NCBI GenBank assembly: GCA_038087875.1
Contig: CM075990.1
Location: 1,800,159 to 1,864,000, forward strand
Direction of reading: 5' to 3'
Length of the DNA stretch: 63,842 bases
DNA from: Malacoraja senta
Lineage: Eukaryota
Shown here: positions 20,245 to 61,100 of the stretch, piece by piece
Layout of the letters: each line of letters starts with the position of its first letter
Position numbering within the stretch: the stretch's first letter is position 1
Program-made: the position numbers and the translations under genes
Notes under the pieces: model-generated
Database searches by the model: none
Seen by the model: only the letters and a program-made list of their open reading frames with translations
What the model was told of the DNA's origin: nothing

Positions 20245-21141
20245 CTATTTACACAGCCGCCCGTTTATTGTGAATAGATATATCATTCCATTCTTCATTT
20301 CTTCCCTAAATTTCCTTTGTGTCAGTGTATAAATACACGTGTTGGTGCAGGTGCTGAGAAACCGGAACATGAACCCAAATTGTTGCAGGATATATACAGG
20401 GGTACTTAAAAATCGGTCTGTGTAAAAATAATTCTCCGCTTGCCAGTTCACAGAGTGTACTATATAGGGCATCCATAGCAAGATGAAATTGGCCGATAGA
20501 GCGAACAAGAACATCATTGACTTTCTCCGGTTCTCCACCTCCGGATCACTCTGATTGTCGCTGCTGTTCCGTAGACCCTGGCGGACTCTGTTTGCCACAA
20601 TAATATGCCTGATTGTTAAAGCATTAAAGAACAGAATGAAAGTTATTGGTAATAATGGTGTTGTGATACTGTCAAATATCTCGTATATTTTCCATATGGA
20701 TGCTGTAAAGTATTCAACTGTCTGGACGCAACGCCAAGGGACGTTGTCAATTATAACGTAAGGCTCCACGGTGAAGAAAAATGGAACGCACCTCACACAG
20801 CTCACCGTCGTCACTGCTACTATCACGACAGTCGCAGTTTTCTCGGTGCAATATTCTTTCCGTAACTTTTGACAGCAGATGGCGATGCCACGATCGGAAG
20901 TGAAAGCGACAGTAAAGCAAACGGAAGTCCATCGCGACCATCCTCAGAACATGTGTTAATGCGCAAATTGGAGTTATGAGCAGGAAGTGAGCAAAGTAAT
21001 AAATGTTATTTATCTGCTCCACTATAACAGAGATAACAACAACCATCAGATCTGCTGCCGCCATGGCCACCAGGTAGCGTGTGACGCATTTGGAGAGACC
21101 ACACTTTCCGCGGGATAGGATCACCATCGCTGTTAAGTTAA
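20245..21141 (-). pseudogene. Exon 2 of a GPR139/GPR142-like rhodopsin-class GPCR with a 2-bp frameshift at ~20925
   Basis: Acceptor cccacag at 21142; VNLTAMVILSRGKCGLSKCVTRYLVAMAAADL, SDR, DPEVENRRKS, FILLWMP, STCTNTCIY, FREE; seven-TM layout once the frame is corrected. Confidence 0.85.
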
Positions 21142-21384
21142 CTGTGGGTATGAAACATCCAGAGTCAATTGCAAAGATTTCCAAATTCCTCGATTAAATG
21201 TAATCAGCATTAGTAAAGATAACGCGCTTTGCTACGGTCGCCCATGGACCCAGGCTGTCTGCACGTTGACCCATTGGGTAATGACGTAAAGTCACAGACC
21301 GTTCGCTATGTCGGTGAGGGCTGGTAATGCCGCGCGGAGAGGAACACAGGATATGCGCACGGCGTGTCGTCGTACAGGTAAAGG

Positions 21385-32160: not shown

Positions 32161-33210
32161 AAGGACATTAAGGATAAGTAAAATATCACGGTTATTAGTA
32201 GGTCTAACTGATATATATATATATATATTTGGAGAGGGGAAGCTCAGAAAATATGACTTTTTAAATAAATATAACCATAAATGTTCTCGATAAGATGGCC
32301 GAAAACTACACGTGGAGAAGTCTAGACACCTTATCGACTCTGGAATGCAAAACCAAGGACATATATATATATATTCGAATGAAAGACTTTTAAAAAATGG
32401 AACTATGCAGCATAGATAAATTAAATGGAGTTGAAAGTAATAATTTACTAATAAAAAGATATTTATCATTATATACTAACTCATAAATAACTGAACTAAT
32501 TCTTGTATATTAATCTGAAACGTACTAGCATAACCGAATAATGATTCAAATTTCTGGGGGGGGGTCTTTTTATTAGATAAGTCGATAATGAACATGTAGA
32601 TTTATGATTGCGAGTTAAATATACTGGAATATGACACTAACATACTAATCAACTAAAATATGCGTAATCGATTCGGGAAGACATTTATGCTCAAGATAAA
32701 CTAACAAGGATTCAAGCTGGAAGGGAAGGGAATCAAACACTTGGCAAGCAGCCAAGAGTGTAATTTCGGTTAACCCCTTCCAATCAGCAGTTTCTTACTG
32801 GGCTTTGCTTGAGAAGTTAAATACAGTAATTGTTAGTAAATAGTAAATACTTGTCCAGCCGAAGATTCAAGTTTGATGTTTTTCTCTATATTCCCCGGTT
32901 TTGAACTCTCTCTTCTTTTTTTACAATATTTGTTTAATGGAACGGAGCTCAATGTAATATAACATCTACGGAAGTTTTCAAGAATTTCTTTCCCACCATA
33001 TGGTGGGGGTTTTCTTGCAGTATTTTTCTTTTGAAATACTGTATTATCACTATTTCTATGATATTTATCACTTTTTCTGATTTTTCTTTAAGGGCACTTT
33101 CACAAGGGATATACCAACTAAGCCTAGTAGCCGTGAGTACCCACCCAACACCCAGAAGCTTGAGGTATTATGTTGCACCATCTGACATAAAGGTACCAAT
33201 GTAATTTATA

Positions 33211-39316: not shown

Positions 39317-42300
39317 TGTAATCACTCAGGATCCGTACATAAGTATAAGTTGTTCATTATAGTAAACACATAGAGCTCAAATACGTAGGTGTCGTAAGCT
39401 CAAACTCAACAACGAATCTAACTAGAGGCTGGACAAACAGACTAGATAATAGGAGACACTCAACCAGGTGACTGTTTGAGTATACAGCGGTATGCAGTAA
39501 AACATGACATGGATCAGGTCAACTAATACTGACCGTTCTACATCCTCCTAAAGTATAATAAATCATGCAACTAAATAAGCATATAACTAAAACTTCCAAT
39601 GTATAGTCGCTTTATAAATCGCAACTAATCCGTGAATAATAATGTGGCCTAAGTAATCGAAGCCTGTAATCAGTATTTAATATAGTCTTAGTATTTAGGG
39701 TTAGGCCGAGAAAGCCGTCCTATACGCGTACGGAACAGGCCCTCTGCTGGAGGGGCGGGTGACATCATATCTGGTGGTGGTTCAACAGAATTAGTAAGAG
39801 ACATCATGGGTGACATCACCGGTGGTCTCATAGGTGATTTCGGCAATAATACCGGTGGCTCTTTGGCCATTGGGGGGCCATTACGATTTGAACCCACAGT
39901 CCCTGCATTAGTCTTTGGCACAAAGTCCTGAACACTGACGTAGCCATACGAGAACTGCTGAGATGGGGAACAAGGACATGGCAGACCAATTGAATAATTA
40001 CTTTGGTTCTGTCTTCACTAAGGAAGACATAAATAATCTGTCGGAAATAGCAAGGGACCGGGGGTTAAATGAGATAGAGGAACTGAGTGAAATCCAGGTT
40101 AGCCGGGAAGTGGTGTTAGGTAAATTGAATGGATTAAAGGCCGATAAATCCCCAGGGCCAGATAAGTTGCATCCCAGAGTACTTAAGGAAGTAGCCGCAG
40201 AAATAGTGGATGCATTAGTGATAATTTTTCAAAACTCTTTAGATTCTGGAGTAGTTCCTGAGGACTGGAGGATAGCTAATGTAACCCCACTTTTTTAAAA
40301 AGGGAGGGAGAGAGAAAACGGGGAATTACAGACCAGTTAGTCTAACATCGGTGGTGGGGAAAATTCTGGAGTCAGTTATTAAAGATGAGATAGCAGCACA
40401 TTTGGAAAGTGGTGAGTTCATTGGACAGTCAGCATGGATTTATGAAAGGTAAATCATGTCTGACGAACCATAGAATTTTTCGAGGATGTAACTAGTAGAG
40501 TGGATAAGGGAGAACCAGTGGATGTGTTATATCTGGACTTTCAGAAGGCTTTCGACAAGGTCCCACATAAGAGATTAGCATACAAACTTAAAGCACATGG
40601 TATTGGGGGTTCAGTATTGATGTGGATAGAGAACTGGCTGGCAGACAGGAAGCAAAGAGTAGGAGTAAACCGGTCCTTTTCAGAATGGCAGGCAGTGACT
40701 AGTGGGGTACCGCAAGGCTCAGTGCTGGGACCCCAGCTATTTACAATATATATTAATGATCTGGATGAGGGAATTGAATGCAACATCTCCAAGTTTGCAG
40801 ATGACACGAAGCTGGGTGGCAGTGTTAGCTGTGAGGAGGATGCTAGGAGGCTGCAAGGTGACTTGGATAGGTTGGGTGTGTGGGCAAAGGCATGGCAGAT
40901 GCAGTATAATGTGGATAAATGTGAGGTTATCCACTTTGGTGGCAGAAACAGGAAAGTAGACTATTATCTGAATGGTGGCCGATTAGGAAAAGGGGAGATG
41001 CAACGAGACCTGGGTGTCATGGTACACCAGTCATTGAAAGTAGGAATGCAGGTGCAGCAGGCAGTGAAGAAAGCAAATGGTATGTTAGCATTCATAGCAA
41101 AAGGATTTGAGTATAAGAGCAGGGAGGTTCTACTGCAGTTGTACAGGGTCTTGGTGAGACCACACCTGGAGTATTGCGTACAGTTTTGGTCTCCAAATCT
41201 GAGGAAAGACATTCTTGCCATAGAGGGAGTACAGAGAAGGTTCACCAGACTGATTCCTGGGATGGCAGGACTTTCATATGAGGAAAGACTGTATAGACTC
41301 GGCTTGTACACGTTGGAATTCAGACGACTGAGGGGGGATCTTATAGAAACTTACAAAATTCTTAAGTGGTTGGACAGGCTAGATGCAGGAAGATTATTCC
41401 CGATGTTCGGGAAGTCCAGAACTAGGGGTCACAGTTTAAGGATAAGAGGGAAGACTTTTAGGATGAGATGAGGAAATCATTTTTTACACAGAGAGCGGTG
41501 AATCTGTGGAATTCTCTGCCACATAAGGTAGTTGAGGCCAGTTCATTGGCTATATTTAAGAGGGAGTTAGATGTGGCCCTTGTGGCTAAAGGGATCAGGG
41601 GGTATGGAGAGAAGGCAGGGATGGGATACTGAGTTGGATGATCAGCCATGATCATATCAAATGGCGGTGCAGGCTCGAAGGGCCGAATGGCCTACTCCTG
41701 CACCTATTTTCTATGTTTCTATGTTTCTATGTTCTTGGTTCGCTCACCGGCATGATATGTTTTCTATTGCGCCTGTAAATTCCTCCTTCGGAACGGACTA
41801 AATATGAACGTGATTCCAGGCAAGTTTTTGCCTCTATGCCTATGTGGCCATGTCCTTTCTCTGTTTGTAGGCGGACCGATTGTCCGGGAGACCAAGACGA
41901 GAGGGGGCAGCTGGTTTGGTCGTAATATGTTTTTTGAACTTACCGTTTGTGTTATAGTTGAGCCTGGATAGCGAGTGGTACAGGAACCTGAGGTTTTAGC
42001 AGTTGCTTAACTACTGGAATGGAGTGCGGGTTTGTCTGGACATCAAACGCTGTGCAGGTGAACCTAACACTGCGTTTCGCGAAACGTTGCGTAAGTTGAG
42101 AACGTCCAGGAAGACATCAGACCCCGCCCTTTTAGATTTTTCCATCACCTGTTTCACACTGCGAACGGCTCTTTCCGCTAACCCGTTCGACTGCCGATAT
42201 TCCGGGCTGCTGGTGACGTGTTTGAAATCCCAGCGTTGGGCAAAATCTTTGAAGCTTTGGCTTGTAAATTGTCCTGCATTGTCCGACATGAGAGAGAGAG

Positions 42301-42860: not shown

Positions 42861-44440
42861 GTTATCAATAATTACAGCAGGATGGTGATCAGTTGGGCAA
42901 GTGAGTATATGGACAAGTGGGCAAATGAGTATTTAATGCAGCTTTATGCAGATAAGTGTGAGGTGTTTGATTTGGAGAATTTGAACCAGGGCAGGATTGC
43001 ACAGTGAATGGCAGGGCCCCATGGTGTGTTGTAGAGCAGATGACTCTAGGTGTGCAAGTACATAGTTTCTGGAAAGACCCGTCACAGGTGGAAATGATGG
43101 TCATGAATGCTTACAGAACATTGACCTTCATCAGCCTGGACACTGAGTACAGCAATTGGGATGTTATGTCACAGTTGTACAAGACGCTGGAGAGGCTGCA
43201 TTTGAAATTGTGTGCCGCAGTAGTCACCTTGCTCCAGGAAGGATGTTCCTAAGCTGGAAAGAACGCAGAGAACATTTACGAGGCCGTGCCAGAAATTAAG
43301 AACATGAGCTATAGGGAGAGTTTGGGCAGGTTAGGACTATATTCCCCACCATGACAAGGTGACAAATTATTGATGTAGATGACAAATTCACTGTGTAGGT
43401 CCAGCCCTTGTTAGACTTCCCAAAATACAACACCTCTCATTTCTCTACCATTCACTGTGTAGGTCCTGCCATCGTTAGACGTCCCAAAATGCAAGACCTA
43501 TCTTCATTAAATTTCATCAACCATTCCTCAGCCCACCTGGCCCATCGATCAAGATCCTGCTGCAATTTTTCACAACTGTCTTCACAATCTGCAAACCCAC
43601 CCACTTTCGCAACAGATGGATAAATGGATGGATGGAATGAGACAGGTACACAGAGGTAGACATTGATACAGGCACACAGAGAGAGACAGACAGACACAGA
43701 CACATACATTTGTCATCTACATCAATGATTTGGATGTGAATATTCAGGGCAAGAATAGCAAGTTTGCTGATGATACAAATGTGGGTGATTTTGCAAATAG
43801 TGAAGCTGGTTGTGAAAGATTGCAGCTGGATATGGATCAATTGGCCAGGTCGGCTGAGGAATGGTTGATGTAATTTAATGAAGAGAGGTATTGCATTTTG
43901 GGGAGTCTAACAATGACAGGATCTACACATTGAATGATAGGTCTCTGGAAGTGTTGTAGAGCAGAGGGATCTCGGAATGCAGGTGCGTGGTTCAGTGAAG
44001 GTGGAGTCGCACGTAGGAGGAACTAGCCCATCATTTGAGAAACAGTTAGACCGGTTCTTGGATAGGACAGGTTTGGAGAAATATGGACCAAACGCGGGTA
44101 GGTGAAACAAGTGTAGCTGGGACGTGTAGGCAGGTGTGGGGAAGATGGGCCGAGAGGCCCCTTTCCACACAGTATCATTCTATGACTATAACATCTCTGG
44201 CTCTATGACTATCTCTGTCCTTTTGTCGGTCTCCTGCGTGTCTATTTATCTACGTATTGGTGTACCTCGATCTTTCCCTCTTCGACGCGGTCGTGACAAT
44301 TAAGAGATGTTTAGTTAGGTGAATGGATATAAAGAGAACGCAACGATATAGATTGTGTCGGAGCAGAGGAGACTAATTTGACTTGGCATCATGTCAGCAT
44401 GGACATTGTGGGCCGATGGGCCTGTTCCTGTGCTGTAGTT
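42860..44440. mobile_element. Mosaic of CR1 RT/3' fragments in both orientations with short microsatellites
   Basis: Degenerate CR1 motifs and (CTATGA)n tail. Confidence 0.7.
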
Positions 44441-44620
44441 ATTTATGCTTTGTAGGTGCGGGTTTATGCTGTCATTTTAATCTCCGCTTCAATGTTTGTT
44501 TCCTATTGTATCGAGTACTACCATAGATAGATCGAGATCTGGGTGGTGGAAGAGTGGAACGGGTCAATTCTTCTGGAAACCAGCAGACAACGAATATAAC
44601 AATATGCTAATGAAATGAAC

Positions 44621-44626
44621 TTTATT
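44621..44626 (-). terminator. Polyadenylation signal AATAAA of the beta-defensin gene
   Basis: ~115 nt downstream of the stop codon on the minus strand. Confidence 0.7.
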
Positions 44627-44741
44627 GAACACAATTTACAGTATTACTCGAACAAAGCTTTGCGAGTATGGAGAATGGTTACTATGTTGGATTCCAGGAA
44701 CAAATCCCGGAGTCGCAGCTGACGTGGTGTTGTTCAGCTCC

Positions 44742-44860
44742 TCATTTTGCGAAGCAGCAGGCGTGCAACCAGCCGCACACACCCCTTACGGCGAATTCGT
44801 ACCTCTTACATAGATATATTCGGCAGATCCCATTGAATCGGTTGCATATTTTCCCGATAT
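44742..44860 (-). CDS. Beta-defensin exon 2, mature peptide (D)IGKICNRFNGICRIYLCKRYEFAVRGVCGWLHACCFAK*
   Basis: Polypyrimidine tract and cag acceptor (44863-44861); C-X6-C-X4-C-X10-C-X5-CC with GxC motifs; stop TGA 44744-44742. Confidence 0.9.
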
Positions 44861-45053
44861 CTGAAACAGGCAGAAAATAACAGTAATTGATTTTTGATTC
44901 TTTGCATTAGGGACAATGAGAGCCCAGGAAATGGTGAAACATCCGATTTCGGAGCTACGTACCTGTATGTTCACAGACCGATACACCAAGGACATTCCTT
45001 GGGCAGCTTACAAACCAGTGATCTGATCATCGGCGATCACTCGAAACGAGTAT

Positions 45054-45930
45054 AGGGAGGTTTCACGGCAGTCGGGTCACGACCCCATGACCCGTCCTGT
45101 TGCTACGCTACGCCAAGTGGAGTACACGCGATGAACTGCAGGCAGGCACTTACCATTGTTTCCAGCGTAGCGGGCCCGCTAAAACCCGCCGAAATGGTCA
45201 ATTTTTGCGCTGTAAATAATTATGGAAATCGGGATAAGCGTGAGAGACATTTAGCCAACTTCAGAATTCAAAAAGTGAGGAGAAATGACGGTAGATTGAA
45301 GCGAGAGCTGAAAGGAACAACAACAGCCAGAGTGCTTGGCGAACATTGGCCGTTTGCTCACTGCATTTCATCAACTAAGGCATTATTTGTGTTTTTTCTT
45401 GATTCCTTTGGTATCTAAAAAGTTTCAGAAGGGATAATCGCCCCTGGTTCTCGTGCGTTTTTACATACAAAAATAAAACGCCTCTGAAGCAAAATTTACA
45501 ACCAGATTTCCCACTTCTGAGACTTTTTAGATACCAAAGAAATAAAAAAATAAAAAAATAATGCCTTACCGTTAATGAAATGCAGCGAACAAACGCAATA
45601 AATCCCGATATTTTCAATTCCGATATCTGCACGGCCAATGTTCGCCAAGCACTTTAGCTGTTGTTGTCCCTTCAGCTCTCGCTTCTCTTTACCTTCATTT
45701 CGCTTCATTTTTGGAATTCTGAAGTTGGGTACATGTCTCTCACACTTACCCCGACTTCCACAATTTTTTACAGCGAAAAAATTCAACATTTTGGCGGTTT
45801 TTAACAGGTAGGAAAGTACGCGTTTCTTGTATTAATAACATATACCGGAAGTGACGGATGTCTTCCAGATGGATTGAGCGGCTCCGTGCGTCAAGCCCTA
45901 TGACCCGGTGACCGTACGTGCAACCCCCCT
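45054..45930. mobile_element. Palindromic MITE with two inverted THAP-domain remnants (ISL2EU/Harbinger-like)
   Basis: TIRs AGGGAGGTTTCACG / CGTGCAACCCCCCT with AT flanks; arms encode MVNFCAV..FRI.K (plus) and MLNFFAV..FRIPK..LANI.R..VCSLHF (minus). Confidence 0.75.
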
Positions 45931-45934
45931 ATAA

Positions 45935-46437
45935 CTGTCTTCTCATGGAGGACGCATGTGCGTGACTTTGTTTAACATGGGGAGACTGGTGCACACAGCC
46001 ACCACACGGTCCTTGACATATCTGAGTCAGAATCCAGTGGCATGGAATCCAAGACGACCGGGGACCCTTTCCTGTTGCAGCCTTCATCCGCCTTCCCAGC
46101 CGTTGTGACGGTCCACTAAAGTCAGCCATCATCCTCCGCCTGTTCCACCATTGAGGTCTTGGTTGGATTGCTTTTAGTCAGAGACCTCCCCCTCGACCTT
46201 ACCGCCATGGGTGACCCTACCAGGAACATATCCCAGGGGATATGGGGAGAAGGCAGGAACGGGGTACTGATTGGGGATGATCAGCCATGATCACATTGAA
46301 TGGCAGAGCTGGCTCGAAGAGCCGAATGGCCTACTCCTGCACCTATTGTTTGTTGTCTATAGCACCAGACGGCATCGCTCCCAGGATCTCAGGACCACGC
46401 AAGTTTCTCCACCACGACAAGGTGACAATCCACGGAG
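45935..46437 (-). mobile_element. RTE/BovB-like 5' UTR-derived element, with a CR1 tail inserted at ~46230-46360
   Basis: Minus strand starts GGATTGTCACCTTGTCGTGGTGGAGAAACTTGCGTG..GATGCCG..GGTAGGGTCACCCA, resembling RTE-clade 5' ends. Confidence 0.6.
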
Positions 46438-46444
46438 ATAGATC

Positions 46445-46825
46445 TGAATATTGATTTATCTAACTTCAAGTAACCCCTGCTTTCCAGCTTCCTCCATCCC
46501 TCCCCCATCCCAGTTGTACCAACTTCAAATTTGTCGTGTTGAGTCTCATTGGCTGTACTCGATCTCACCTAACAAACAGCAAACGATGGTCTGTTTCCTT
46601 TATTATCGTTACTTTTTTACTTATCTTTCATTCATCTGTTCTATATCTCTCTACATCACCGTCTATATCTCTCTTTTCCATTGCCCCTGCCTCTCATTCT
46701 GAAGAAAGGTCTTGACCCGAAATATCACCTATTCCTTTCTTCAGATATGCTGGCTGACCCGCTGAATTACTCCAGCTCTTTGTGCCTTTCTTCAGTTTAA
46801 ACCATCATTGCATTTCTTCCTACAC
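46445..46825 (+). mobile_element. Penelope 3' end fragment with hammerhead-like motif (~46697-46730)
   Basis: Homologous to 27320-27975. Confidence 0.7.
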
Positions 46826-46879
46826 AGCAAGGAATTACGGCATTTGCCCAAATTGATAAGCAGACTCTTTGTATTGTGG

Positions 46880-49800
46880 GCCTGTCTACTCTGCTTGAAT
46901 TTAGCCCATAACCCTTTAAATCATTTCTATCTCTATATCTGCACAAATGTCTTTTGAAAATGTCATTGTATCTGTTTCAATAGCATTCTCTCAGAGCTCT
47001 GAGAACTCCGAATATCATCCCAGTGCACATCGCCCCTGAATTCCCTGTATATTTTTTCACTCTCACATAATGCCCAGTTTTAGAATCCTCTACTCTGAAG
47101 AGGACTGTGCCCAGTCCGAGTAACATCCAATGCCATAACATCATACTTATTAGAGGGCGACCAAAACTGCACGCAGTAATGCAAGTGTGGCCTCCCCAAA
47201 GACCCGAATTACCGAACTTCATGTTATACTCCCACTATTCCCTCCCCAGAGCCCTCCCATTTGGAGTTGTAGAACCATACAGCAAAAAAAGAGGCACGTC
47301 GGCCCAACTCCCCATTCCGAACAAGATGCCCCATCAACACTAGTCTTACCTGTCAGCCTATGGCCCATATGACACCAACACTTTCTCATCGGTGTGTTTC
47401 TCAAAATCGTTTAAATGTTGTTAGAGACCTGTCTCAACTGCAGCTCATTCCATAAACACAACGCCCTCTGTGTGAAAAAGATGCCCTCGATTACCTAGAA
47501 AATCTTGCTCTTTCTCATCTTAAAACTGTCTTCTGGTTCTCGCTTTCTCTACTCGGGATACAAGACTCCGCGTATTCACCCTATCTATTTCCATCATGAT
47601 TTTATACACCTCTATAAAATAGTCCCTCAGCCTCCCTACCTGCAAGGAATATAGTCCTAACCTGCCCAACCTCTCCCTATAGTCCAGGTTTTCAATTTCT
47701 GGTACGTCCTCGTAAATGTTCTCTGCATTCTTTCCAACTTAGCAACATCCTACCCGTAGCAAGGTGACTACTGCTGCACACACTATTTCAAAAGCAGCCT
47801 CTCCAGTGTCTTGTACAAATGTGACATAACATCCCAATTGCTGTACTCAGTGCCCAGGCTGATGAAGGTCAATGTACTGTGAGCAGTCATGACCATCATA
47901 TCCACCTGTGATGGGTCTTTCTAGAAACTATGTACTTGCACACCTAGATTCATCTGCTCTACAACACTCCACCGGGCCCTGCCATTCACAATAGACAATA
48001 GACAATAGGTGCAGGAGTAGGCCATTCGGCCCTTCGAGCCAGCACCGCCATTCAATGTGATCATGGCTGATCATCCCCAATCAGTACCCCGTTCCTGCCT
48101 TTTCCCCATATCCCCTGACTCCGCTATCTTTAAGTGCCCTATCCAGCTCTCTCTTGAAACTATCCAGAGAACCTGCCTCTGCCACCCTCTGCGGCAGAGA
48201 ATTCCACACACTCACAACTCTCTGTGAGAAAAAGTGTTTCCACGTCTCCGTTCTAAATGGCTTACCCCTTATTCTTAAACTGTGCCCCCTGGTTCTAGAC
48301 TCCCCAACATTTGGAACATGTTTCCTGCCTCCACAATCCCTTCACAATCTTATATGTTTCAATAAGATCCCCTCTCATCCTAAACTCCAGAGTGTACAAG
48401 CCCAGTTACTTTATTTTCTCAGCATATGACAGTCCAGCCAACCCGGGAATTAACCTTGTAAACCTACGCTGCACTCCCTCAATAGCAAGAATGTCCTTCC
48501 TCAAATTAGGGGACCAAAAATGCACACAATACTCCAGGTGTGGTCTCACTAGGACTCTGTACAGCTGCAGAAGGACCTCTTTGCTCCTATACTCGACTCC
48601 TCTTGTTATAAAGGCCAACATGCCATTCGCTTTCTTCATTGCCTGCTGTACCTTTCATCGACTGGACCGCCAGATCCCGCTGTACTTCCCCTTTTCCCAA
48701 CTTGACGCCATTTAGATAGTAATCTGCCTTTCTTTTTTTGCTACCAAAATGGATAACCTCACATTTCTCCACATTAAACGTCATCTGCCATGCATCTGCC
48801 CACTCCCCCATCCTGTCCAAGTAACCCTGCAATCTCATAGCATCCTCCTCACAGTTCACACTGCCACCCAGCTTTGTGTCATCTGCGAAATTTGCTAATG
48901 TTACTTTGAATCCCTTCATCCAAATCATTGATGTATATTGTAAATAGCTGTGGTCCCAGCACCGAGCCTTGCGGTACCCCACTAGTCACTGCCTGCCATT
49001 CTGAAAGGGACCCGTTAATCCCCACTCTCTGTTTCCTGTCTGCCAACCAATTTTCTATCCATGTCAGCACTCCACCCCCAATATCATGTGCCTTAATTTT
49101 GCCCACTAATCTCTTGTATGGGACCTTATCAAATGCTTTGGGCAAATGCTTATCATTGCAATGTTGGGCGAGTCCAGAACCAGGGGACACAGTCTTAGAA
49201 TAAAGGGGAGGTCATTTAGGACTGAGGTGAGAAAAAATGTTTTCATCCAGAGAGTTGTGAATTTATGGAATTCCCTGCCACAGAGGGCAGTGGAGGCCAA
49301 GTCACTGGATGGGTTTAAGAGAGAGTTAGATAGAACTCTAGGGGCTAGTGGAGTCAAGGGATATGGGGAGAAGGCAGGCACGGGTTATTGATTGGGAACG
49401 ATCAGCCATGATCACAATGAATGGCGGTGCTGGCTCGAAGGGCCGAATGGCCTCCCCTGCACCTATTTTCTATGTTTCTATGATTCTATGCTTTCTGAAA
49501 GTCCAGGTACACTACATCCACTGGCTCTCCCTTGTCCATTTCCCTAGTTACATCTTCAAAAAATTCCAGAAGATTAGTCGAGCATGATTTCCCCTTCGTA
49601 AATCCATGCTGACTCGGACCTATCCTGTTACTGCTATCCAAATGTGCGGCTATTTCATCGCTTATAATTGACTCTTCCCCACCACCGATGTCAGGCTAAC
49701 TGGTCTATAATTCCCTGTTTTCTTTCTCCCGCCTTTCTTAAAAAGTGGGATAACATTAGTTACCCTCCAATCCACAGGATTAGCTACCCTCCAATCCACT

Positions 49801-50470
49801 GTGTAGTCCTGCCCCGGTTCGAATTCCCCAAATGAAACACCTCACACTTATCTGCATATAGCTGCATTAAATATTCATCTGACCACTTGCCCAACTGATT
49901 ACCATCCTGCTGTAATTATTGATAACTATTTTTACTATCTACAATACAGCCAACTTTTGTGCCATCTGCAACTTTCTAATCATACCTTCTACAGGTATAT
50001 ACTCATGCATATTGTTCATATAAGCCAGAAACAGCAACCTACCCAGCACCGATCACCAACGCACACAACTAGTCACAGGCGTCCAGTCGTGGTCCCCTAA
50101 TTTGGTCTCCTAATTTGAGGAAGGACATCCTTGCTATCCTTCCCTGTGGCAATTTTTCTATCCAGTCGCCTAGCTCTCCCTGGCCCCCATCCAATCTAAA
50201 CGTCAGGTGAAGCTTACCATGCCGATACCTGATCAAATACATTATCCCATGCCATCAATGACTGCGCTTGTGCCCTCAATTTATTTCTTCAAAAATCTCA
50301 ATCAGATTCATAAAGGGGTTCATTAAATGTAACATCTCCAAATTTGCGGATTACTCTAAGCTGTGTGGCAGTGTAAGCTGCGAGGAGGATGCTATGATGC
50401 TGCAGGGTGACTTGGATAGGTTGGACGATTGGGCAGGTGCATGGCAGATACAGTATAATGTGGATAAATG
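46880..50470 (-). mobile_element. Nested CR1 fragments, mostly minus strand (plus-strand CR1 3' end at ~49140-49490)
   Basis: RT motifs in ORFs 48406-48639, 48587-48982 and 48879-49190; CR1 tails. Confidence 0.8.
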
Positions 50471-50474
50471 TTAT

Positions 50475-51195
50475 CCATTTGCCTCAGAGCCATGCTCGGT
50501 AGATTAGCCATGACTGCTACTGCTGAACAATCCTGACAGGTCATCCAACCCAATTATATCCAAAAGCGCACGTCTGTTTTGAATGATAATGGCCCCAGGT
50601 GTCCCCTGCACTCTCTGTCTATTTGCTTTTCCTCGCTGTCGCCCAACAACTCTCTTCCTGTATCTAAGCCGTGACCTTTTCCCGACAACGCCAATCTAAG
50701 AAGCGCTAATTTTGCCAAATGAACCCGAGATCGCTCAGCTGCACCATCTGGCCCCTAATGCAGTTCTAAGAAGCTGCACCTGGCCACAAATTCTGCAGGT
50801 ATTGTCATCGGGGATACAAGCAATTTATTTGAGTTCACACATACTGCAGAAGGAACATTGGACCTTTCCACCTGCTATTGTTACTGCAGTTAAATCCAGA
50901 GATATTAATACAATAATCACACAAAAGAAACAGCAGCAATGAGTCAAAGCCGTACATATACACTCAAGACATCCTCTCCTCTCCTCTCATTCGCCCCTCC
51001 TCCGCCACCTCGCCTTGCCGCCAAACACGACTGCTCCCAATAAGCCGCTCTGCTACATATTGTCTTCTTTTTTATTGGGTGTTTAATTAGCCAATATGTC
51101 ATTTAACCAAATCATCGACAGCTTTCTTTTTAAATCACCCATTGCTACATCTAACAGAAATGCACAGACTCAACGAATTCAACGATTGCCTTATG
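50475..51195 (-). mobile_element. Decayed CR1 5' UTR/ORF1, inverted paralog of 30700-30974 plus 37363-37760
   Basis: High collinear identity; lacks the L1 insertion (empty site at ~50856-50872). Confidence 0.8.
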
Positions 51196-51249
51196 AAATC
51201 TGGATCTGGATGTAGCACACTGAAAAGCTCTAGGTAGAGCATCACTCAG

Positions 51250-53460
51250 CATTATGATGGTGGTGGACATGCTAGTCGAGATGGAGATGCTTTTGGAGTT
51301 GCATCTTTGTATGTATTGATATTTTGGAGGTCTCTGATTGTGGCTGGTTGGGTATTCCAATCCCTTGCTGTCTTGAAGAAAAATGAGTTAGAAAGTGCTA
51401 ATGAAGTGCCCTGTGGAATAAAATAATTTCCAGGTTGGTAGCTTCTGGTTGACATGCCTATGGGTGTTGGGTTAACTGGATGTGGTCCTCCATCTTTAAA
51501 TCAATAGTGGTATTCTTGATCTTGTGGAATGTTGTCAGTCTGATGAACTTGCGACGAGTAGTAGGTGGATGAAGTTTAAGGTCCTTTATCATGCTGGAGT
51601 CTGAGCTCTGCCACTTGTAGTTGTTTGTTATGAATCTTGCTGCTCCGTTTTGCGCTGCCTGGATGTTATTGATGTTCCCTTGAAAGGATCCCTCACGGAG
51701 CAGCAATATTCAACGTGTGGACATACAAGGCTTTTATATGCGTGGATCTTAACGTCTTTGGGAGCATTTTGCAGATTGCGACGTAGAAAGCTGATGACAC
51801 TGCCGGCTTTGTCTGTTGCCCCTTCAACATGCTTGATCCATTTCATGTTTTCAGACAAAGTAACTCCTAAGTATTTATGACTAGAAACTGCCTCTAGTTG
51901 ATGTCCAGGAAGTGTATAAGAATGATGGATTGGTTTAGATTTCCTAGTAAAACGCATGACATTACATTTTTCTGGTTCAAACATCATTTGCCATTTCTTC
52001 TCCCATCTCTCCAATGAGCGCAGATCTTTTCAAAGCGTCAGGCAATCATCATGAGACTTGATCGGTCGATAAACCACACAGTCGTCGGCAAAGAGGCAGA
52101 CCTCAGATGTGATGTTATCTGTGAGATTGTTAATGTAGACTAAAAACAGCAGCGGTCCCAGCACAGTGCGCTGTGGTACGCCAGAGTCGACATGGGATTG
52201 TTTTGAGGAAGTTCCCTGGACTACAACCGACTGCTCCCAGTCAGTTAAAAAGCCAGTTATCCAGGAGTGAAGTGAGCCCTCTACACCAAAGTATTTGAGA
52301 CGGCGAAGAAGCCTCTGATGTGGAATGGTGTCGAAAGCTTTTGCAAAATCTAGCACCACTGCGTCCACTTGTTTGGTTTATTCCACAGAGCTGAAGATTT
52401 GGTGAATGGTAGTTATCAGCTGGGATTCACATGACCGTCTGGCCCGGAAACCATGTTGAGGATGTTGTTTCTCTCCAGGTGTCCCATGATGTGTGGATAG
52501 ATGACATGCTCTAATAGTTTACAACAAACTGAGGTGAGCAATACCGGCCAGTAATTTGCAGGACCAGTTCACCTCCATTTCTTAAATGAAGCAGTGATGT
52601 CGGCTTGCCTCCAATTACGAGGTAGCTCACCGGTCTGAACACTCCGGTAGAAGATGATTTGCAAAATGGGTGCCACGTAAGTATTCTTGGAGAGATGCCA
52701 TCTGGACCAGAGGCTTTGTTTGCATCAAGATTCTTAAGAAGTTTCATTATACCCTCAGTAGGGATGGACAGATCAGAAATCCTTGGAGCCTGTCTAGGTC
52801 CTGATGAGGGGATGCTAGTGGTGTCTTCTTTGGTAAAAGTAGACTGGTATTGTTTACTAAGTGCCTCTGCATTTTCTTTGGGGGTACTAATTTGCCTTTA
52901 AATTGAAGGGCAGCAATTCCACTTGAATCATGTCTCTTTTGCTTGATGAATGACCAAAACTTCTTAACATTGGTTTTAAGGGAGTCAAAGACAGTGGTCG
53001 ACAAGTTCAGCTTTGCGAAGTTCTACTGAACCTGCTTACGAAGTTGTTTATAACGACGCCACTGACAAGAAGAACCCTCAGATTTGGCAGTATAGAAAGC
53101 TCTGTTCTTCTTCCTGGTGAGCCGTGTTAAGGGCTTGTTCATCCAAGGCAGATTGTAGCTAGAGATTTTGTATTTTGATGGAACATTAGACTCCTGGGAT
53201 GAGTTGATGGCCTCTATGAAACACCACCAGTTTTCTTCAACAGATCTGTTACCATGCACATCTAGGAAGGATTTGCAGAAGTTCTCCATCTCCTTCTGGA
53301 GGTCGGGAGCATTAGCTTTGTGCCAAAGATAGATCCTACAGCGTTCGGTCTTCTGAATAGTTGGTCGTAGGGAAGCTTAAACGGTCATTCTGAGATGATC
53401 CGATATGCCAGCTTCAGTTACTACGGGGTTTGTCACCAGTAGCAAGTCAAGAATATTCCT
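51250..53460 (-). mobile_element. Divergent CR1-group LINE ORF2 remnant unlike the other CR1s here
   Basis: LDFAKAFD, SGVPQ..LGPLLFL, LFADDC, KYLGV, FLRRNL..AYKSLV.P..EYC. Confidence 0.8.
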
Positions 53461-53514
53461 TACACTATAGGATCTCGTCTGGTGGTTGTGGTCAGGCTCA
53501 AAAGCACAGTGTAA

Positions 53515-54357
53515 ATGAGAAATCCTGAATCAAATCCAGATGGGCCTCCCGAGCACCCCGTAGCGGCCCGATGTTCATGCCCTCTCGCCGGGAACGATGG
53601 AACCCCGACATCGAACGGGAGAACATCCTTAGCGGCTTTAAAATCTTTCCCCTGCACGGGAGACCCGACCTTTTCTTTGTCGGGTCTCCATTGTCCTTGG
53701 GGCTGGGCAACGTGGAGCGGCCTCCAGCAGGAACGACCTGGGCCTCCAGTTGCGGAGCTGCGGACTACTCACCGTCACGGGGCTGGCCGAGTCCGGAGCG
53801 GGTGGAGCTGTGGTGGAAACAATCGCTGCTGCTACCCGACCCCTGGAGATTCGGAGGCCACAGCCGCGGGTCTGGCGGACGGCAACACCGGAAGCCCGCG
53901 GGTCCCTGGGGGGAGACCGCTTTTCGGGGCTTCCGCAGCGGCGACTTCTCCCGCCCGAGTTGCGGGGTTGAAGAGCACCTGGAGCGGGGCTTTACATCGT
54001 CGCCCCGCGCGGCTTGGAGTGGCCGCGGTACTTTGCGAGCGCGCGCCGGGGCTCTAACACCAAGACCCGGTGCGCGACCTTGCATTAACCGGCGTGGCTT
54101 TAATGGTCGGGGGATAATCACCATCGCCCGCCGGGGCTTTGACTTTGACATGGGGGGGGGGGGAGTGCAGTGGAGAGATACGTTTTTTTGCCTTCCATCA
54201 CAGCGCTGTGATGGATGTATGTGTAAATTGTGTTGTGTCTCGGGTCTTCTTCGTTTTGTAATGTATGGCTGCAAAAACGATATTTCGTTTGGACCTCGAG
54301 GGGTCCAAATGACAAATTTGTTCAAATGACAAATAAAAATAATTGAATTGAATTGAG
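53515..54357 (+). mobile_element. GC-rich non-autonomous retroposon with (AATTG)n tail
   Basis: No credible protein; LINE-like tail ATGACAAATAAA..(AATTG)n shared with 28764-28935. Confidence 0.6.
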
Positions 54358-54579
54358 GTCAAGCATTCCAACAGCTGCTACTCGAAATCTGCAGCTGCTA
54401 CTCCGACACAGAAATTCACTGACTCAACCAATCCAACTACTGCCTTTTAAAACCACCTGCTGCTGCTGCGACACTGAAAAAGGCTAACGCAAACAATCCA
54501 TGCAATTTTCCAATGCCTTTTTTTTCTCCCATCATCTTTCAAACCGCAGTCAACCTACTCCATTTCAAAACTTTGCACA

Positions 54580-55570
54580 CTGGTGGGCGATGGTGGAAGG
54601 TAGCTTCTCGGACTGGAGACCTGTGATTAGTGTTGCTACAGGGTTCAGGGCTGGGCCCGTTACTATTTCTCATCTACATCAACGTTTTCTGATGATACAA
54701 ACGTGGGTGGTTTTGCAGACAGTGAAGATAGTTGTGAAACATTGCAGCAGGATCTTGATCGTTTAGCCAGGTGGGCTGAGGAATGGTTGATGTAATTTCA
54801 TACAGAGAGGTGTTGCATTTTGGAACACCTAACAATGGCAGGACCTACACAGTGAATGGTAGGCCTCCTGGGAGTGTTCTAGAGAGATCAAGGAGTACAG
54901 GTGCATAGTTCCTTGAAGGTCGAGTCACGTGTATACAAGGTGGTAAAAAAGGCTTTTGGCACATTGGCCTTCATCAGTCAGAGTATTGAGTACAGATATG
55001 GGAGGTCATGTTGCAGTTATGAATAGAGACCGCATTTAGAGTATTATTTTCTGTTCTGGGCAGCATATAATAGGAAAGATATTGTCAGGTTCAGAGAAAA
55101 TTTACGAGGATGTTTCCATGGCTAAAGGGTTTCAGCTATAGAGGTTGAGTACGCTGGGTCTCTATTCATTGGAGCGCAGGAGGATGAGGAGTGATTTTAT
55201 ACAGGTGTATACAATCATGAGAGGAACAAATAGGGGAGATGCACAAAATGTCTTGCCCAGAGTATGGGAAACGAGGACTAGAGGACATAGGTTCAAGGTG
55301 GTAGAAAATATTTAATAGGTAACCTTTTCACACAGAGGGTGGTGAGGGTATGGATCAAACTGCCAGAGGAGTTAGTTGAGCCGGGGACTATCCCAACGTT
55401 TAAGAAACATTTAGACAGTTACATGGATATAACAAGTTTGGAGGGATATGGACCAAGCGCATGCAGCTGGGACTATTGCAGTTGGGTCGTGTTGGCCAGT
55501 GTGGGCAAGTTGGGCCGAAGGACCTGTTTCCACACTGTATCACTCTATGACTATGATTCTATGAATCTAT
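54580..55570 (+). mobile_element. CR1 RT/3' fragment
   Basis: Homologous to 22280-23430; (CTATGA)n tail. Confidence 0.8.
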
Positions 55571-57072
55571 CACAGATGTCTGCCCAGAGTCATGGGTGAA
55601 GTAAGATTAATTGTGCGTATTCACAGCGAACAACGAAATTCTTAGCATAGCAGGCTTGAAATCGCAATATACATAGATAATATAAAATAAACACAAAAAA
55701 TAATGCTCTAATACCAATTGAAATGCAAAAACAGGAAGTCCGTAGTGCAACCAAAGAGAGTCCAAGCCCATTGTTAAGGTTCGTAGCTTATAGTGTTTAA
55801 GAGCCCGATGGTTGCTATTTTGAACTTGATGAAAGTTAACTGACAGTCACTTGATCCTCCAGACGTTGAGAGCAAGATTCGTGTTCTGACATAATTCAAT
55901 CAGATTTGTAGCCTCCTACCTCCACTCTAATTCGTCGCTACCCGTTATTTGTGCAGCAGTGTGTGAAGTATATCTGGCCTTATAATGACTAAAGCAGGCA
56001 AACGAGCACGTAGGTGTTCATGTGCTGATGGCTATCGAGGAGGAAATCCGATTATCAATTCTTATTGATTGTAGTCCGCTGTAAGGAAGTCGATGATTTA
56101 GTTGATCGACGTCTTATTGTGCCTCGAGTACATCACAAAGTTTGCGCCACCCGCATATTTATGTATAATGCCATCGCTATATTTGTCCTCATCGAACGCG
56201 AATCTCACTACTTGGCAAGGTTTGTCTAATCTAGTTTCAGACTAATCTGCCCTGGGAAATGTCTGTAAGCATTCACATCTATATTCCGTATTATTTTATA
56301 AAACCCTATCGGGTCACTCCTCAGCCTCCTTCCCTCCTTCCCTCCACGGAAAGCATTCCCAGTTGTCCTGGCTAAATTGATGTTCCCGCCACATCCTTAT
56401 GGAGCTTTCCTGCTCTATTTCTAGCTGAATCACATCATCGCTCTAGTATGTGTGCCAGAACTGCACACCATGCCCCTTTCACGATCTCGCCAACGTATTC
56501 TACAGTTGAACCATGACGTCCCAAATCTTGCACACAATGCTCCGTCCGATGAGGTGAAGCGGACGACATACCATTTTGCCACCTTTCGTCTCTATGTCGC
56601 CCCGTTTTGAGGACTAAATACACAAGACTTACGTTTACGTTTCACTGTTTTACACGATTCCCCACGTACCTGCCATCTATTGTCCACATTCTACCCTGGT
56701 TTAACTTGCCAAAAAATGCACCACTTCGCAGCTGTTTGAGATAACTTCCATCTGCCATTGCTATTGCCCACTTTCCAAGTTAATCTATTTATTGTTGCAC
56801 GTCATAAATTGTTCAGTATTCTCCAGCACACCACCAATTTCAACCTTCCAAATCATGCAACTTGCATCTTCATCTAAATCGTTAATATGTGTTTTCAACA
56901 ACACCGGGCCCAGCACCGATACCTGCAGCATACCGTTGATCACTTCCCTCCAATCTGAAGAGCTACTCTCCACAAAACACAGTCTGGCGCCTATCGCCGC
57001 GCCAAGTCTTAAGCCACAAGACTATGCTTCAATAAAAAAGATCCTGGAAGAAGTCAGAATTGATACACTTAC

Positions 57073-57181
57073 CTTGGTATATGAGCCTTCCCTTCACTTC
57101 ATTTTCATCCGAACGGTAAAGTTGCAGATGCAGCGACAGAAGAACGCCTAAAACCAACAGAAGCGTGTTCATCTTCAGCAT
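57073..57181 (-). CDS. Beta-defensin exon 1 (signal peptide and short acidic propiece) MLKMNTLLLVLGVLLSLHLQLYRSDENEVKGRLIYQ
   Basis: ATG 57181-57179; hydrophobic core; consensus donor CAAG/GTAAGT; phase 1 matches exon 2 (G+AT = Asp). Pairing with exon 2 across 12.2 kb is inferred. Confidence 0.8.
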
Positions 57182-57983
57182 ATTTCCCTGCTCACATTGA
57201 CGTGGGTACTTTACTGGAACTCTTTAAAAGTACTCTGCGAACGGTGCAGTTGATTTGTGCAAGTTCGCATTGAAACACTAAGCTCGAAGCTGATCGCGAG
57301 CAGTTTGTTATTACCACATTGAGGAGCCAGTCTGTGTAATAATTGAACAGTGAAATTGTAATGTAACATCTTGTGTGTCCGGTGGCAGGTGCACAATCTC
57401 CAAACAGAATTCATTATATTACCATGGAGTGGAAATATTTACCCATCATGTGTGTCAGGTGGCCCATATCACCAGAGAAATGGTCTCGTTCCCACAGATC
57501 GGCCATTTCAGAGAACCAGACTAACGTGGACTTGCGAAACGTGTCAGTAAACTCAAGTTGTGCTCGCCGCCAGATGGCAATTTTAATTCTTAGATGGCAA
57601 TTCTTGACCTCACTGTCCAGGTGATAGACTACTGACAGACATCCACTATAACCCCACTGACTTCCATGTCTATCTGGACTACACTTCTTCCCACCCTGGC
57701 GGTTTAATACCAGATGGTATTAAAACCGTGGCCCAGCAATTCATCCATAGCGCTCGGTGCCTGAGCGAAACATCTGGACACGTATTAAATGCACCCAACA
57801 ACCGAATTTCATCCACTTTTTCACGCTGTACACACCAGGTTCTTATCCCAATTCCATGAAGGATTCTTCCCACATCTCCCCCTAAATCACGTCATGCTTA
57901 CCATAAATCTAGATTGTATCGGTTTATCTGCCTCTGCTAGGAGATTGCCGCAATATACACAACTCCCTGTTGTTTAAAAAGGA

Positions 57984-58183
57984 NNNNNNNNNNNNNNNNN
58001 NNNNNNNNNNNNNNNNNNNNNNNNNNNNNNNNNNNNNNNNNNNNNNNNNNNNNNNNNNNNNNNNNNNNNNNNNNNNNNNNNNNNNNNNNNNNNNNNNNNN
58101 NNNNNNNNNNNNNNNNNNNNNNNNNNNNNNNNNNNNNNNNNNNNNNNNNNNNNNNNNNNNNNNNNNNNNNNNNNNNNNNNNNN
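57984..58183. other. Assembly gap (200 N)
   Basis: N run. Confidence 0.99.
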
Positions 58184-61100
58184 TAACTTGTGTATAATAA
58201 AAATATATTGTTGGAATTGCTAATTGTTAAAGTTACAGTTTAAAGTGTATTAAAATTTTGCCATTGCTTTATTGTATTTACTGTGTCTTGCCTTTGATTT
58301 AAAGTTTTGAGTTACATGCACTGTTGTAATAGTGGTTCGAATCGGGACTGTATATGCATGATAGTGATAAGTGGTATAGTTTCTTGTCTACGTACAATTT
58401 TGCTTGAATGTTTAGAGCTCATTTGTCTGCGTCCAGATTAAGATGTTTTGAGTGCAGGAAATTTGCTGCTGGTGTGTTTGATTGTGTTTGATTGTTCACT
58501 GAAGCACCTTAACTTTTTGTCGACCAAGGACTGTTACTTAAAATTGTTTACAGGTTGAATGTTTGTGTAGTTTGTGTGAGACTGTAGAGGAATTTTTGGG
58601 TACCCAGGATTTGGAAGTAGATTGGATTGCGTGATTGTGTTGTGAGAAGTGCGAGACTGCTGACGTGCTGCGGAACCTTTGGCCATTGTTTGGGAGCGAG
58701 TTTGATAGTCTAGGAGATTGTGAGAGAAGTGTGAATTGTTGAGAGAGTATGTGAATTGTTGAGACTTTGTTTCCATTGTTAAAAACAATGGGAAATCATA
58801 TTGAACGAGATACAATTGAAGACCCAGAAAGCCCCGCTCCAGTTAGTGTGTAGCGAGTTTCCAGAAATGGCTGAGAGATTAAAAAACTTTTCGGCAGCGT
58901 TGAATAGGAAATTAGGAGATGATTTATGGTCCGAGGGGGGCGTGGGAACATTGAAGTATATCAAACAGATTATTTGGCAATGCAGTAACAGTGAGGCAGC
59001 GAATGAGTTAATAGGATTGTGGAGAAAATATTATGAAGATCAGAAAGCGAATTTAGAGGCCGTGATAATGGTGAGTTGGAAGGAAGAAGCTTCAAAACTT
59101 GGGATAGAACTGAAAGATAATGAAGTAAACCAACCTCCAGGCACCTTGTGAGAGGGGTGTGGATGTACTAGAGATCAGGAGCAGGAGAGAAAAAAATCTT
59201 CGGAAGGGAAACTGGCACCAGTAGATCTTGAATTTAAGGACCCGGTGGTTGGCATTGGCTTTGAGGGGGAGAAGACGAGTATTTGGAAGATTGGGAAAGT
59301 GTTAGAATTAGAAGAAGTTCACAGCCTCCATCTTATTCCTCTTGCGTTCCCCGTAATCCATCTACACATTGTTTAGCTTGTGCACACAACAGACACTCAG
59401 ATCCTGCAGCACCTTTAACACCACCTGCAGATTCCACAACAAAGCCTGCTTTACAAACAGCCGCAACACCAGTACAGGATTCTTTGACTCCAACCGCTCC
59501 ACTGACAGCAGGTAGTCCAGTAGCTCATGGTACCAGGAATAAAACAAAAAAGATAGCTCCAGTATTTATGGAGAAAGTGGTTATTAGAGACATAGTACAA
59601 CCACCAGAGTATTTTAGTGAGCCTAAGCCTAGACGAATTAGACGAGCAGCGAGAGAACAGAGAGGGGTCATTTAGGAGGTACCGTGATCCCCCCTAATGA
59701 AGAGGAAGACATATCTGATGGTGAGACAATAGCTGGAGACACTGAAGGAGATCCCGATATGGCAAAAATTCTGAAAGCAGAGCAAACATCCCGTAGGCAG
59801 TTCCCAGTCAGGGAAATGGGGTGGAAGATTGCAACCTTCACGTGGTCCATCCTGTTTCGACTAATGCAATCAACTCGACGTGCACAAACAGAAGATCAAA
59901 TAGAACAAGTTGTCCAACAACTTTAGGCTGTGCATGCCACACGAAAGAAGAAGTCAGGGAAATGCCTAATCTGGCTTTTGATCCGGTTAGTGCAGTGGGT
60001 GCAAATAATCCCCGAACTATAGATATCTATACCCCTTGGAAGCCGAATGAGATGATGGCAGTACTGAGCAAGATACCAGACCATAAGAAATCACCTGCTT
60101 CCTTTGTAGATTACCTTAGAACCACAATGCGTGTGTATCACGCAGACTCACGAGATTTATGGGCAGTGATCCAGCATATAATTACTCCGATTGAACATAC
60201 TAGATTCCTTGCAACCCTAGGACACCCAACTCATGAAGCACTGTCTAATGTGATCGCAGACAATAGCGCAAGAGAAGATGCCGTTTTAACTGCCCTTGCG
60301 AATACTCTTCAGAAACCAATTGATCTAGCTAGAATCTTGGATGTAAGACCGAAAAAGGCAGAGGGAGCAGATGAGTTCTTCGAAAGATTTTCAGAATTGT
60401 ACTTGTACCAATTAGGTAACCTAAATTATCGAAATAGGGCAAATTCTCCACAATACTGTGCCATATTGTTGAAGACTTCCAACCAGTGTGGCTGAATCAA
60501 TTAAAACTAATAATATGGACTGGTCGGAAACAGTGCCAGTCAGATGGCTCAGGCAGTAAGATACCACTGGAAAGATCTAAAAAAAACAGGAAAGTCAGCC
60601 TGCAGTTAAACCAAAATCAGAATATATAATTGAGAAAGAGGTGCCAAAATCTGACTTCGGACTGTGGAGTCCTAAAACATTACTGAAGTTTAGAATAGAA
60701 GAATCTAAGATCCCAAATTATCCAGATCCACTTTACGATGAGATACCTGCCTTAGAGCCGATTTCTCCGAGACCAAATTTGAGAAGAAATACTAAAATAC
60801 TGGGACCAGATCAGTGTTATACTTGTGGTGGAACAGGGCATTGGAGTAGAGCATGTCCGACTAGGGAACGAATTGAAGGAAGGGGTCTGAGAAGAGATTA
60901 TCAGGATCAGAGGAACTTTTGGGATCCTAGAGACTACAGGAGCACTCAAGATCCTAGAGATTACAGGAAATCTTTAAATCCTAGAGATCAGAGAGAACAG
61001 AGAGTAAGCTGGCCAGGAGATCAGGGACCAAGAAGACAAACACCTTTCTCACAGACCAATCCATTTTCGCAGTCCTGATTAGCTAGTCAGTCCAGAATTA

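Follow-up and report, generated by a model that had tools for sequence, protein, structure and literature searches.

A putative divergent beta-defensin gene with two short exons 12.2 kb apart in a probable cartilaginous-fish genome

Can two short open frames, more than 12 kb apart on the minus strand and separated largely by repeats, be the two exons of a single beta-defensin gene? The question is raised by one locus, at about 1.845-1.857 Mb on contig C14 of the assembly, in a 63.8-kb stretch of genomic DNA (the window, i.e., the whole stretch that was analyzed). The locus is read here as a divergent vertebrate beta-defensin gene with two exons, a phase-1 intron, and a predicted secreted cationic peptide as its product, a reading that, judged from the sequence, has a probability of about 0.6. 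It adds a member to a known family and does not define a novel type of gene. Exon 1 would supply the start codon, the signal peptide, and a short acidic pro-piece, and the phase-1 intron would have grown to 12.2 kb by repeat insertions, while exon 2 would encode the mature six-cysteine peptide in its entirety, with a short 3′ untranslated stretch and AATAAA after it. Upon secretion, the precursor is expected to lose its signal and pro-piece and to form three disulfides, such that the cationic peptide could target microbial membranes or serve as a ligand for receptors, like other beta-defensins. Splicing of both exons, expression, processing, fold, and activity are thus predicted properties of the locus.

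The coding part of exon 2 (44742..44860, minus strand) starts at 44860, directly after ...ttattttctgcctgtttcag, and is preceded by a polypyrimidine tract and a CAG acceptor that are seen in the sequence (44861..44885, minus strand). With the last intron G standing in for the G contributed by exon 1, it translates into a peptide of 39 residues, with a TGA stop at 44744-44742. The peptide harbors six cysteines with spacing 6/4/10/5, the last two adjacent, as well as seven Lys/Arg against two Asp/Glu, resulting in a net charge of about +5 and an isoelectric point of 9.13. The 3′ untranslated stretch (44621..44741, minus strand) ends in AATAAA at 44626-44621, 115 nt past the stop. Reading of the minus strand exactly reproduces the exon 2 coordinates, acceptor, and peptide quoted in a preliminary description of this DNA. 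The poly(A) signal lies where that description had placed it, ~115 nt downstream, and a recount returns the same charged residues and the same six cysteines ending in CC. The open frame 5′ of the acceptor lacks a methionine, and exon 2 therefore requires an upstream start exon.

The cysteine spacing fits the defensin framework C-x(4-8)-C-x(3-6)-C-x(7-14)-C-x(3-7)-CC over a span of about 40 residues. In a six-frame scan, this framework has one match in the window, while the mean over 100 shuffled windows is 0.01 per window. The sequence relationships described below support exon 2 as a real beta-defensin-type coding exon, one of a family in this genome that can be linked to PF00711 and to solved beta-defensins.

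The genome (1.94 Gb in 6,182 contigs, with only the best candidates scored) was searched with the exon 2 peptide, then with the related frames on contigs C815 and C4412, and then with PF00711. At least ten exons of the beta-defensin type are present, and for most of them a signal exon can be recognized. The closest paralogue is the C815 frame (44% identity to the exon 2 peptide, E 3.3e-4 in the genome-wide search), followed by a C4412 frame (42%, E 0.158). The C815 copy (C815:192864-192977; L002) has an intact six-cysteine frame with spacing 6/4/10/5 and shares with the present peptide the ending W-L-H-A-C-C. The same spacing is found in two C4412 copies, at 441198 and 307087, and in the dispersed single copies C3:68350659 and C12:540009, while the single copy C9:38727933 has spacing 6/3/11/5. 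The four C16 copies, at 8557425, 8571439, 10107022, and 10865932 (L016-L018 and L026), form a canonical group in which three have spacing 6/3/9/5 and one, L026, is irregular. A third C4412 copy, at 327996, carries an in-frame TAG and is a pseudogene; decayed copies thus exist in this genome, although the copy described here is intact. In all, the family loci are L002-L003, L009-L010, L012, L016-L019, L026, and L034. Two further candidates were rejected: L004 (E 8.56), which has no six-cysteine frame, and L024, a Cys-Val simple-repeat artifact.

Beyond the cysteines, G11 and W31 are common to the paralogues, and a tryptophan after the fourth cysteine is conserved in a subfamily that includes this peptide. 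The 10/5 spacing, previously held to be unusual, is not borne out as such, since six of the 12 motif-bearing frames listed have spacing 6/4/10/5.

The link between these exons and accepted beta-defensins is made by the family as a group. In an alignment of ten exon-2 peptides, eight match PF00711 at E ≤ 10, and four pass the 21-bit gathering cut-off (42.0, 31.9, 27.2, and 23.3 bits). The C16 copies score 27-42 bits, L019 scores 23.3, L034 20.1, L003 16.8, and the C815 copy 13.9; the peptide of interest and L012 have no PF00711 score. The profile of the ten peptides, which includes the canonical members, retrieves beta-defensins first among the sequences of the PDB, with mBD-8 at E 6.8e-6 and hBD-2 at E 1.3e-5. 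At E ≤ 10 it matches 31 distinct sequences, nearly all of them defensins, the lower matches comprising avian and crocodile defensins and, at E 0.54, crotamine. When the profile of the four-member subfamily is aligned with that of the canonical group by hhalign, the match (E 1.3e-4, probability 54%) extends over 38 columns with all cysteines in register. In the protein atlas, PF00711 accounts for both of the nearest clusters (scores of 0.87 and 0.81, with 179 and 170 of 256 features shared), which serves as a lead only. In a word-index search of proteins of 22-72 and 29-95 residues, no candidate has three five-residue words in common with exon 2. The beta-defensin profile search that had been proposed as a check thus has a divided outcome: the peptide itself is not matched, but its paralogues are, four of ten above the cut-off. 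The exon 2 peptide is probably a diverged branch of the beta-defensins, joined by sequence to accepted members via its paralogues and not directly.

The proposed coding part of exon 1 (57073..57181, minus strand) begins with an ATG and comprises 36 residues plus one extra G, the first nucleotide of the junction codon. A second in-frame ATG is located at 57172. The translated peptide has a lysine-bearing N-terminal end, a Leu/Val-rich, signal-peptide-like hydrophobic core (mean Kyte-Doolittle value of 3.42 over nine residues), and then an acidic S-D-E-N-E stretch. The splice donor gtaagt (57067..57072, minus strand) follows ...CAAG and scores 8.7 with a rough matrix of our own. Because one extra G and gtaagt follow the 36 residues, the intron is in phase 1. 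The 109-nt extent (57181-57073) and the phase-1 GTAAGT donor given by the preliminary description are both found in the sequence.

Upstream of the first ATG, at a distance of 42-48 nt, the TATA-like TTTTAAAG (57222..57229, minus strand) may be a core promoter. Five paralogue signal exons have A/T boxes 55-65 nt 5′ of their ATG, and, judged by eye, A/T-rich TATA-like boxes 40-65 nt 5′ of the start codon are found family-wide. About 800 nt 5′ of the exon 1 candidate lies an assembly gap of 200 N (57984-58183), and as a result the promoter region and all that is further upstream rest on a scaffold join.

Whether the two exons belong together can be approached by asking how often a frame such as exon 1 occurs. 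Signal exons were defined by an ATG, 15-50 stop-free codons, a hydrophobic window of nine residues, and a phase-1 GT donor, with a rough scoring of our own. On the minus strand from 44861 to 57983 (13.1 kb), with thresholds of at least 2.2 for the hydrophobic core and at least 3 for the donor, the exon 1 candidate is the sole match from either ATG. Both strands of the whole window contain four relaxed candidates and one strict candidate, the latter being exon 1 itself; in the antisense strands of twelve 10-kb flanks of paralogues there is one further relaxed candidate but none that is strict. Exon 1 aside, the background amounts to four relaxed and zero strict candidates in 247.7 kb scanned, corresponding to 0.21 relaxed and <0.16 strict candidates expected by chance per 13.1 kb.

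The paralogues provide a second line of evidence. Seven of the ten paralogue exon-2s are preceded, at a distance of 0.77-3.34 kb, by an ATG/signal-peptide exon that has a phase-1 GT donor, and an eighth signal exon (that of C16c) emerges 2.8 kb upstream once the thresholds are relaxed; for the pseudogene C4412:327996, only a poor candidate is found, at 7.6 kb. The layout of signal exon, phase-1 intron, and mature exon, on which the initial assignment had leaned, is therefore the rule in this family. The junction codon G|AT (Asp) is common to this gene and C4412c, and the exon-2 acceptor ...cag|AT to this gene, C815, and C4412c (by locus number, L002 and L012). Weighed against the adverse results given below, the odds that the exon 1 candidate is paired with exon 2 may be put at roughly two in three.

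The proposed intron (44861..57072, minus strand) is 12,212 nt long and largely composed of interspersed repeats, as indicated by contig depth and by a repeat search. The repeat-filled 12.2-kb stretch first noticed between the two exons is accordingly confirmed in both its length and its largely multi-copy content. Contigs of four runs (X1, X23, X2, and X12), which behave like genomic DNA, were placed on 44400-57500. Their summed depth is 10^4-10^7 in bins 45274-50517 and 53140-55761 and about 30-600 in bins 50518-50954, 51829-53139, and 55762-57500, the last of which holds exon 1. Both exons sit in low-copy sequence. Among the 15 contig joints listed, beyond which there are 4,023 others, none connects 57073 with 44860.

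The most conspicuous element in the intron is a high-copy interspersed repeat at 47989..49481 (no strand assigned), whose ends (47991-48311 and 49160-49481) are inverted copies of each other, 81% alike. Queried against the same genome, 47900-49640 yields 22,870 first-look candidates. Scoring of 40 of these gives 92 listed matches, among which the long copies show 87-92% identity across about 1.1 kb and the inverted self match pairs query positions 92-412 with 1261-1582. In the copy at 47989-49481, the first 320 nt recur inverted near the end, while other copies continue straight into the following repeat. Five intron frames (53529-54326, 53515-54054, 48299-48712, 51631-52029, and 52514-52897) contain no Pfam domain, and the repeats are therefore non-autonomous or decayed.

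The locus is common to related species at about 94-95% identity. A contig from run X1, which is from the same organism and possibly the source of the assembly and hence not independent, is identical over 44410-44899, and another X1 contig spans 55536-57500 with seven other letters and five gaps. Contigs of a related organism, B (run X2), cover 44400-45053 with 33 other letters and 23 gaps, and those of another, E (run X12), cover 44731-44970 with 12-14 substitutions and no gap, such that exon 2 has no indel. Both X2 and X12 contigs also span 56062-57500, the region of exon 1. The comparison says little on selection because the positions of the substitutions were not seen.

As had been supposed, this genome very likely belongs to a cartilaginous fish, since its acetylcholinesterase is nearer to the Torpedo enzyme than to any bony-vertebrate chain in the PDB. 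Its large exon (on C998) matches 1gqr/1ea5/1acj/1eve, which we take to be Torpedo californica acetylcholinesterase, with 956.8 bits over 474 residues and no gap. The next chains score 777 bits (4qww), 689 bits (1j06/1maa, presumably the mouse enzyme, and 1c2o, presumably that of the electric eel), and 684.6 bits (4ey4, presumably human).

A number of results weigh against the reading of the locus as an intact beta-defensin gene. The first set concerns the peptide of exon 2, which by itself has no match at E ≤ 10 to Pfam, and thus falls below the 21-bit gathering cut-off of PF00711, and none at E ≤ 10 to the sequences of the PDB. When 1.84 billion representatives are searched exhaustively with phmmer, only two matches result at E ≤ 0.001, both to long repetitive proteins and judged spurious. 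Without the canonical members, the profile of the four-member subfamily reaches no better than E 0.083 (hBD-3) and E 0.24 (mBD-8) in the PDB. The exon is also the lone motif of its kind in the 63.8-kb window, unlike those of the C16 and C4412 groups.

Structure prediction gives no significant match either. AlphaFold2, supplied with a ten-row alignment, returns a poor model (mean pLDDT, i.e., predicted local distance difference test score, of 63) with a helix at residues 2-8 and strands at 23-25 and 28-30. The top Foldseek match of this model is hBD-2, at E 0.91 and a template modeling (TM) score of 0.48; none of the 110 matches at E ≤ 10 reaches E ≤ 0.001, and none of the 110 chains reaches a Z score of 2 in VIA-align. 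As a control, the canonical L016 (42 bits to PF00711), modeled from the same rows, has a pLDDT of 71, and all 26 of its Foldseek matches are beta-defensins, the best at E 0.12. Since even a canonical member attains only this value, the structural method is low-powered for peptides so small.

The remaining adverse results concern exon 1 and the distance across which it would have to be spliced. By eye, no obvious cleavage site with small residues at -3 and -1 is present in its signal peptide. The exon 1 peptide has no relative elsewhere in the genome, and BLASTP yields no alignment between it and the most similar-looking paralogue signal exon; in an alignment of the signal peptides, the likeness is generic only. 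The intron is 4-20 times as long as those of the paralogues (12.2 kb vs about 0.6-3.3 kb). Finally, the 30 kb upstream of C815, the closest paralogue, contain no signal-exon candidate.

These last two observations count in favor of the chief alternative, in which exon 2 is an orphan or decaying copy, stranded recently and unexpressed, whose own first exon has been lost or separated from it by repeats, with the frame at 57181-57073 being dead or coincidental. C815 may be such an orphan exon or, instead, a gene with a still longer intron; because its six-cysteine frame is intact without a signal exon, intact orphan six-cysteine exons probably occur in this genome. The evident pseudogene among the paralogues and the isolation of the present gene from the clusters are likewise in keeping with a stranded copy. 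Against this reading, both exons, both splice sites, the stop, and AATAAA are intact, and the contigs of one related organism (run X12) over exon 2 are gap-free. Coincidence would have placed a strict exon 1 candidate on the right strand of the 13.1 kb less than 0.16 times. An orphan copy is therefore unlikely, although it retains a larger share of the probability than any other rival.

Several known systems can be compared with this gene. The peptide resembles the vertebrate beta-defensins (PF00711; e.g., hBD-2, 1fd3; mBD-8, 1e4r; hBD-3, 1kj6) in the six-cysteine framework ending in CC, in the glycine before the second cysteine, and in being a cationic peptide of about 40 residues that is encoded whole in the last exon, with a proposed signal exon across a phase-1 intron. 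The family profile of this genome also matches their solved structures. It differs from them in falling under the PF00711 reporting thresholds, in combining 6/4/10/5 spacing with a tryptophan after the fourth cysteine, and in belonging to a gene that has a 12.2-kb intron and stands alone rather than clustered. The canonical C16 group of the same genome shares with it the proposed two-exon phase-1 layout with a signal exon, and all cysteines align at 22-28% identity. In contrast, those copies have 6/3/9/5 spacing, 27-42 bits to PF00711, and introns of about 0.7 kb, and all four lie within 2.3 Mb.

Teleost beta-defensins, too, are cationic, have six cysteines and a signal peptide, and carry five residues ahead of the CC. 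Their genes are described as having three exons, with the cysteines split over two, whereas all six cysteines are in one exon here, as in mammals. Big defensins differ in their cysteine spacing. They are found in molluscs, horseshoe crab, and amphioxus and have a beta-defensin-like C-terminal framework, and a phase-1 intron is discussed, in a passage of one paper, as a link between them and the beta-defensins (PMC7203481). A big defensin was rejected as the identity of this locus because the hydrophobic N-terminal domain is absent. The 36 residues of exon 1 amount to a signal and a short acidic stretch, and our own scan of the sequence between exon 1 and exon 2 finds no further coding-exon candidate.

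Crotamine and other myotoxins have a beta-defensin fold and a C-terminal cysteine pair after five residues. A myotoxin identity was rejected by profile, since the peptide has no match to the Myotoxins family (PF00819), and nothing hints at a venom context. A broader version of this idea is that the gene is real but that its peptide serves mainly as a toxin or as a ligand of ion channels or receptors, as exemplified by crotamine, the platypus defensin-like peptides, and CBD103. The position of the subfamily under the PF00711 cut-off and its dispersal outside the canonical cluster are compatible with such a role. L010 has a faint PF00819 match (10.7 bits, E 0.68), but this is far under the 25-bit cut-off and concerns L010 rather than the present peptide. 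Nothing specific indicates a toxin or a ligand, and neither the charge of +5 nor the framework departs from what is usual in antimicrobial beta-defensins. A mainly non-antimicrobial role is thus rather improbable; it overlaps with the preferred reading of an intact beta-defensin gene, and its likelihood is not to be added to those of the other alternatives.

The preferred reading could also fail at the pairing, if exon 2 is expressed with another first exon that is situated beyond the gap at 57984-58183 or was missed by the scan, the frame at 57181-57073 being unrelated. The roughness of the hydrophobicity and donor scores leaves room for this, as do the proximity of the gap to exon 1 and the lack of a detectable relative for the exon 1 peptide. 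Yet no second candidate is present in the 13.1 kb at relaxed thresholds that caught seven of the ten paralogue signal exons, and the phase and junction codon of the exon 1 candidate match the family. A different first exon is accordingly quite improbable. Least tenable of all is a chance open frame with a cysteine pattern and no gene, which is favored by the lack of a curated family match for the peptide itself but is hardly credible given the 0.01 framework matches expected per window, the paralogues that agree with it in spacing, in acceptor phase, and in several non-cysteine residues (G11 and W31), and the well-placed splice sites and poly(A) signal.

If the locus is an intact beta-defensin gene, its wider placement can be only tentatively drawn. 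This gene and the C815 and C4412 copies could constitute a cartilaginous-fish-specific, tryptophan-bearing subfamily of beta-defensins that scores below curated thresholds, is dispersed from the canonical cluster, and is for these reasons unannotated. Together with the C16 group, it might place the two-exon, phase-1 layout with all six cysteines in one exon already at the base of the jawed vertebrates, and some members might be ligands or toxins. This proposal is doubtful as a whole, being about half as likely as the assignment of the gene itself.

Little work has been devoted to the antimicrobial peptides of sharks, rays, and chimaeras. A full-text literature search, which leaves most subscription journals outside its coverage, returned no paper describing chondrichthyan beta-defensins, and the motif WLHACC occurs in the searched full text in one unrelated chemistry paper. 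In a passage on cartilaginous-fish antimicrobial peptides, a 2019 review names only transferrin, squalamine, and kenojeinin (PMC6795676). Passages of PMC7203481, PMC9363672, PMC10707392, PMC9599618, and PMC10303038 have no bearing on chondrichthyan beta-defensins. Predicted "beta-defensin-like" entries for other chondrichthyan species may well exist. Two short exons 12 kb apart and a peptide under the Pfam thresholds are easily missed by annotation. The single locus is of limited value until a transcript is shown, and the mammal-like two-exon layout across a family of at least ten exons may be worth more than the locus itself. Those exons provide a concrete gene set for the organization of the family in early jawed vertebrates, as well as new peptides for testing.

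The window harbors several other coding frames. A frame of 933 residues (15302-18100, minus strand) contains reverse transcriptase and RNase H domains of a Gypsy-type pol; its best relatives, from tilapia, are 48% identical, and a match to a little-skate protein (66% over 9% of the query) is a faint hint only. A LINE-type (long interspersed nuclear element) frame at 33205-35856 (plus strand) has an endonuclease (Exo_endo_phos) followed by a reverse transcriptase, and a second LINE-type reverse-transcriptase fragment is located at 40464-41468 (plus strand). From profile position 71 onward, the 232-residue frame at 20248-20943 (minus strand) matches the family of rhodopsin-type receptors, and among the atlas clusters nearest to it many bear the name GPR139-like (chordate). 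No domain is found in the frame that overlaps it upstream (20750-21193), and the 20248-20943 frame may be a truncated or frameshifted receptor gene. A further frame at 60581-61075 (plus strand) encodes a CCHC zinc knuckle (29.7 bits) and is probably a retroelement gag.

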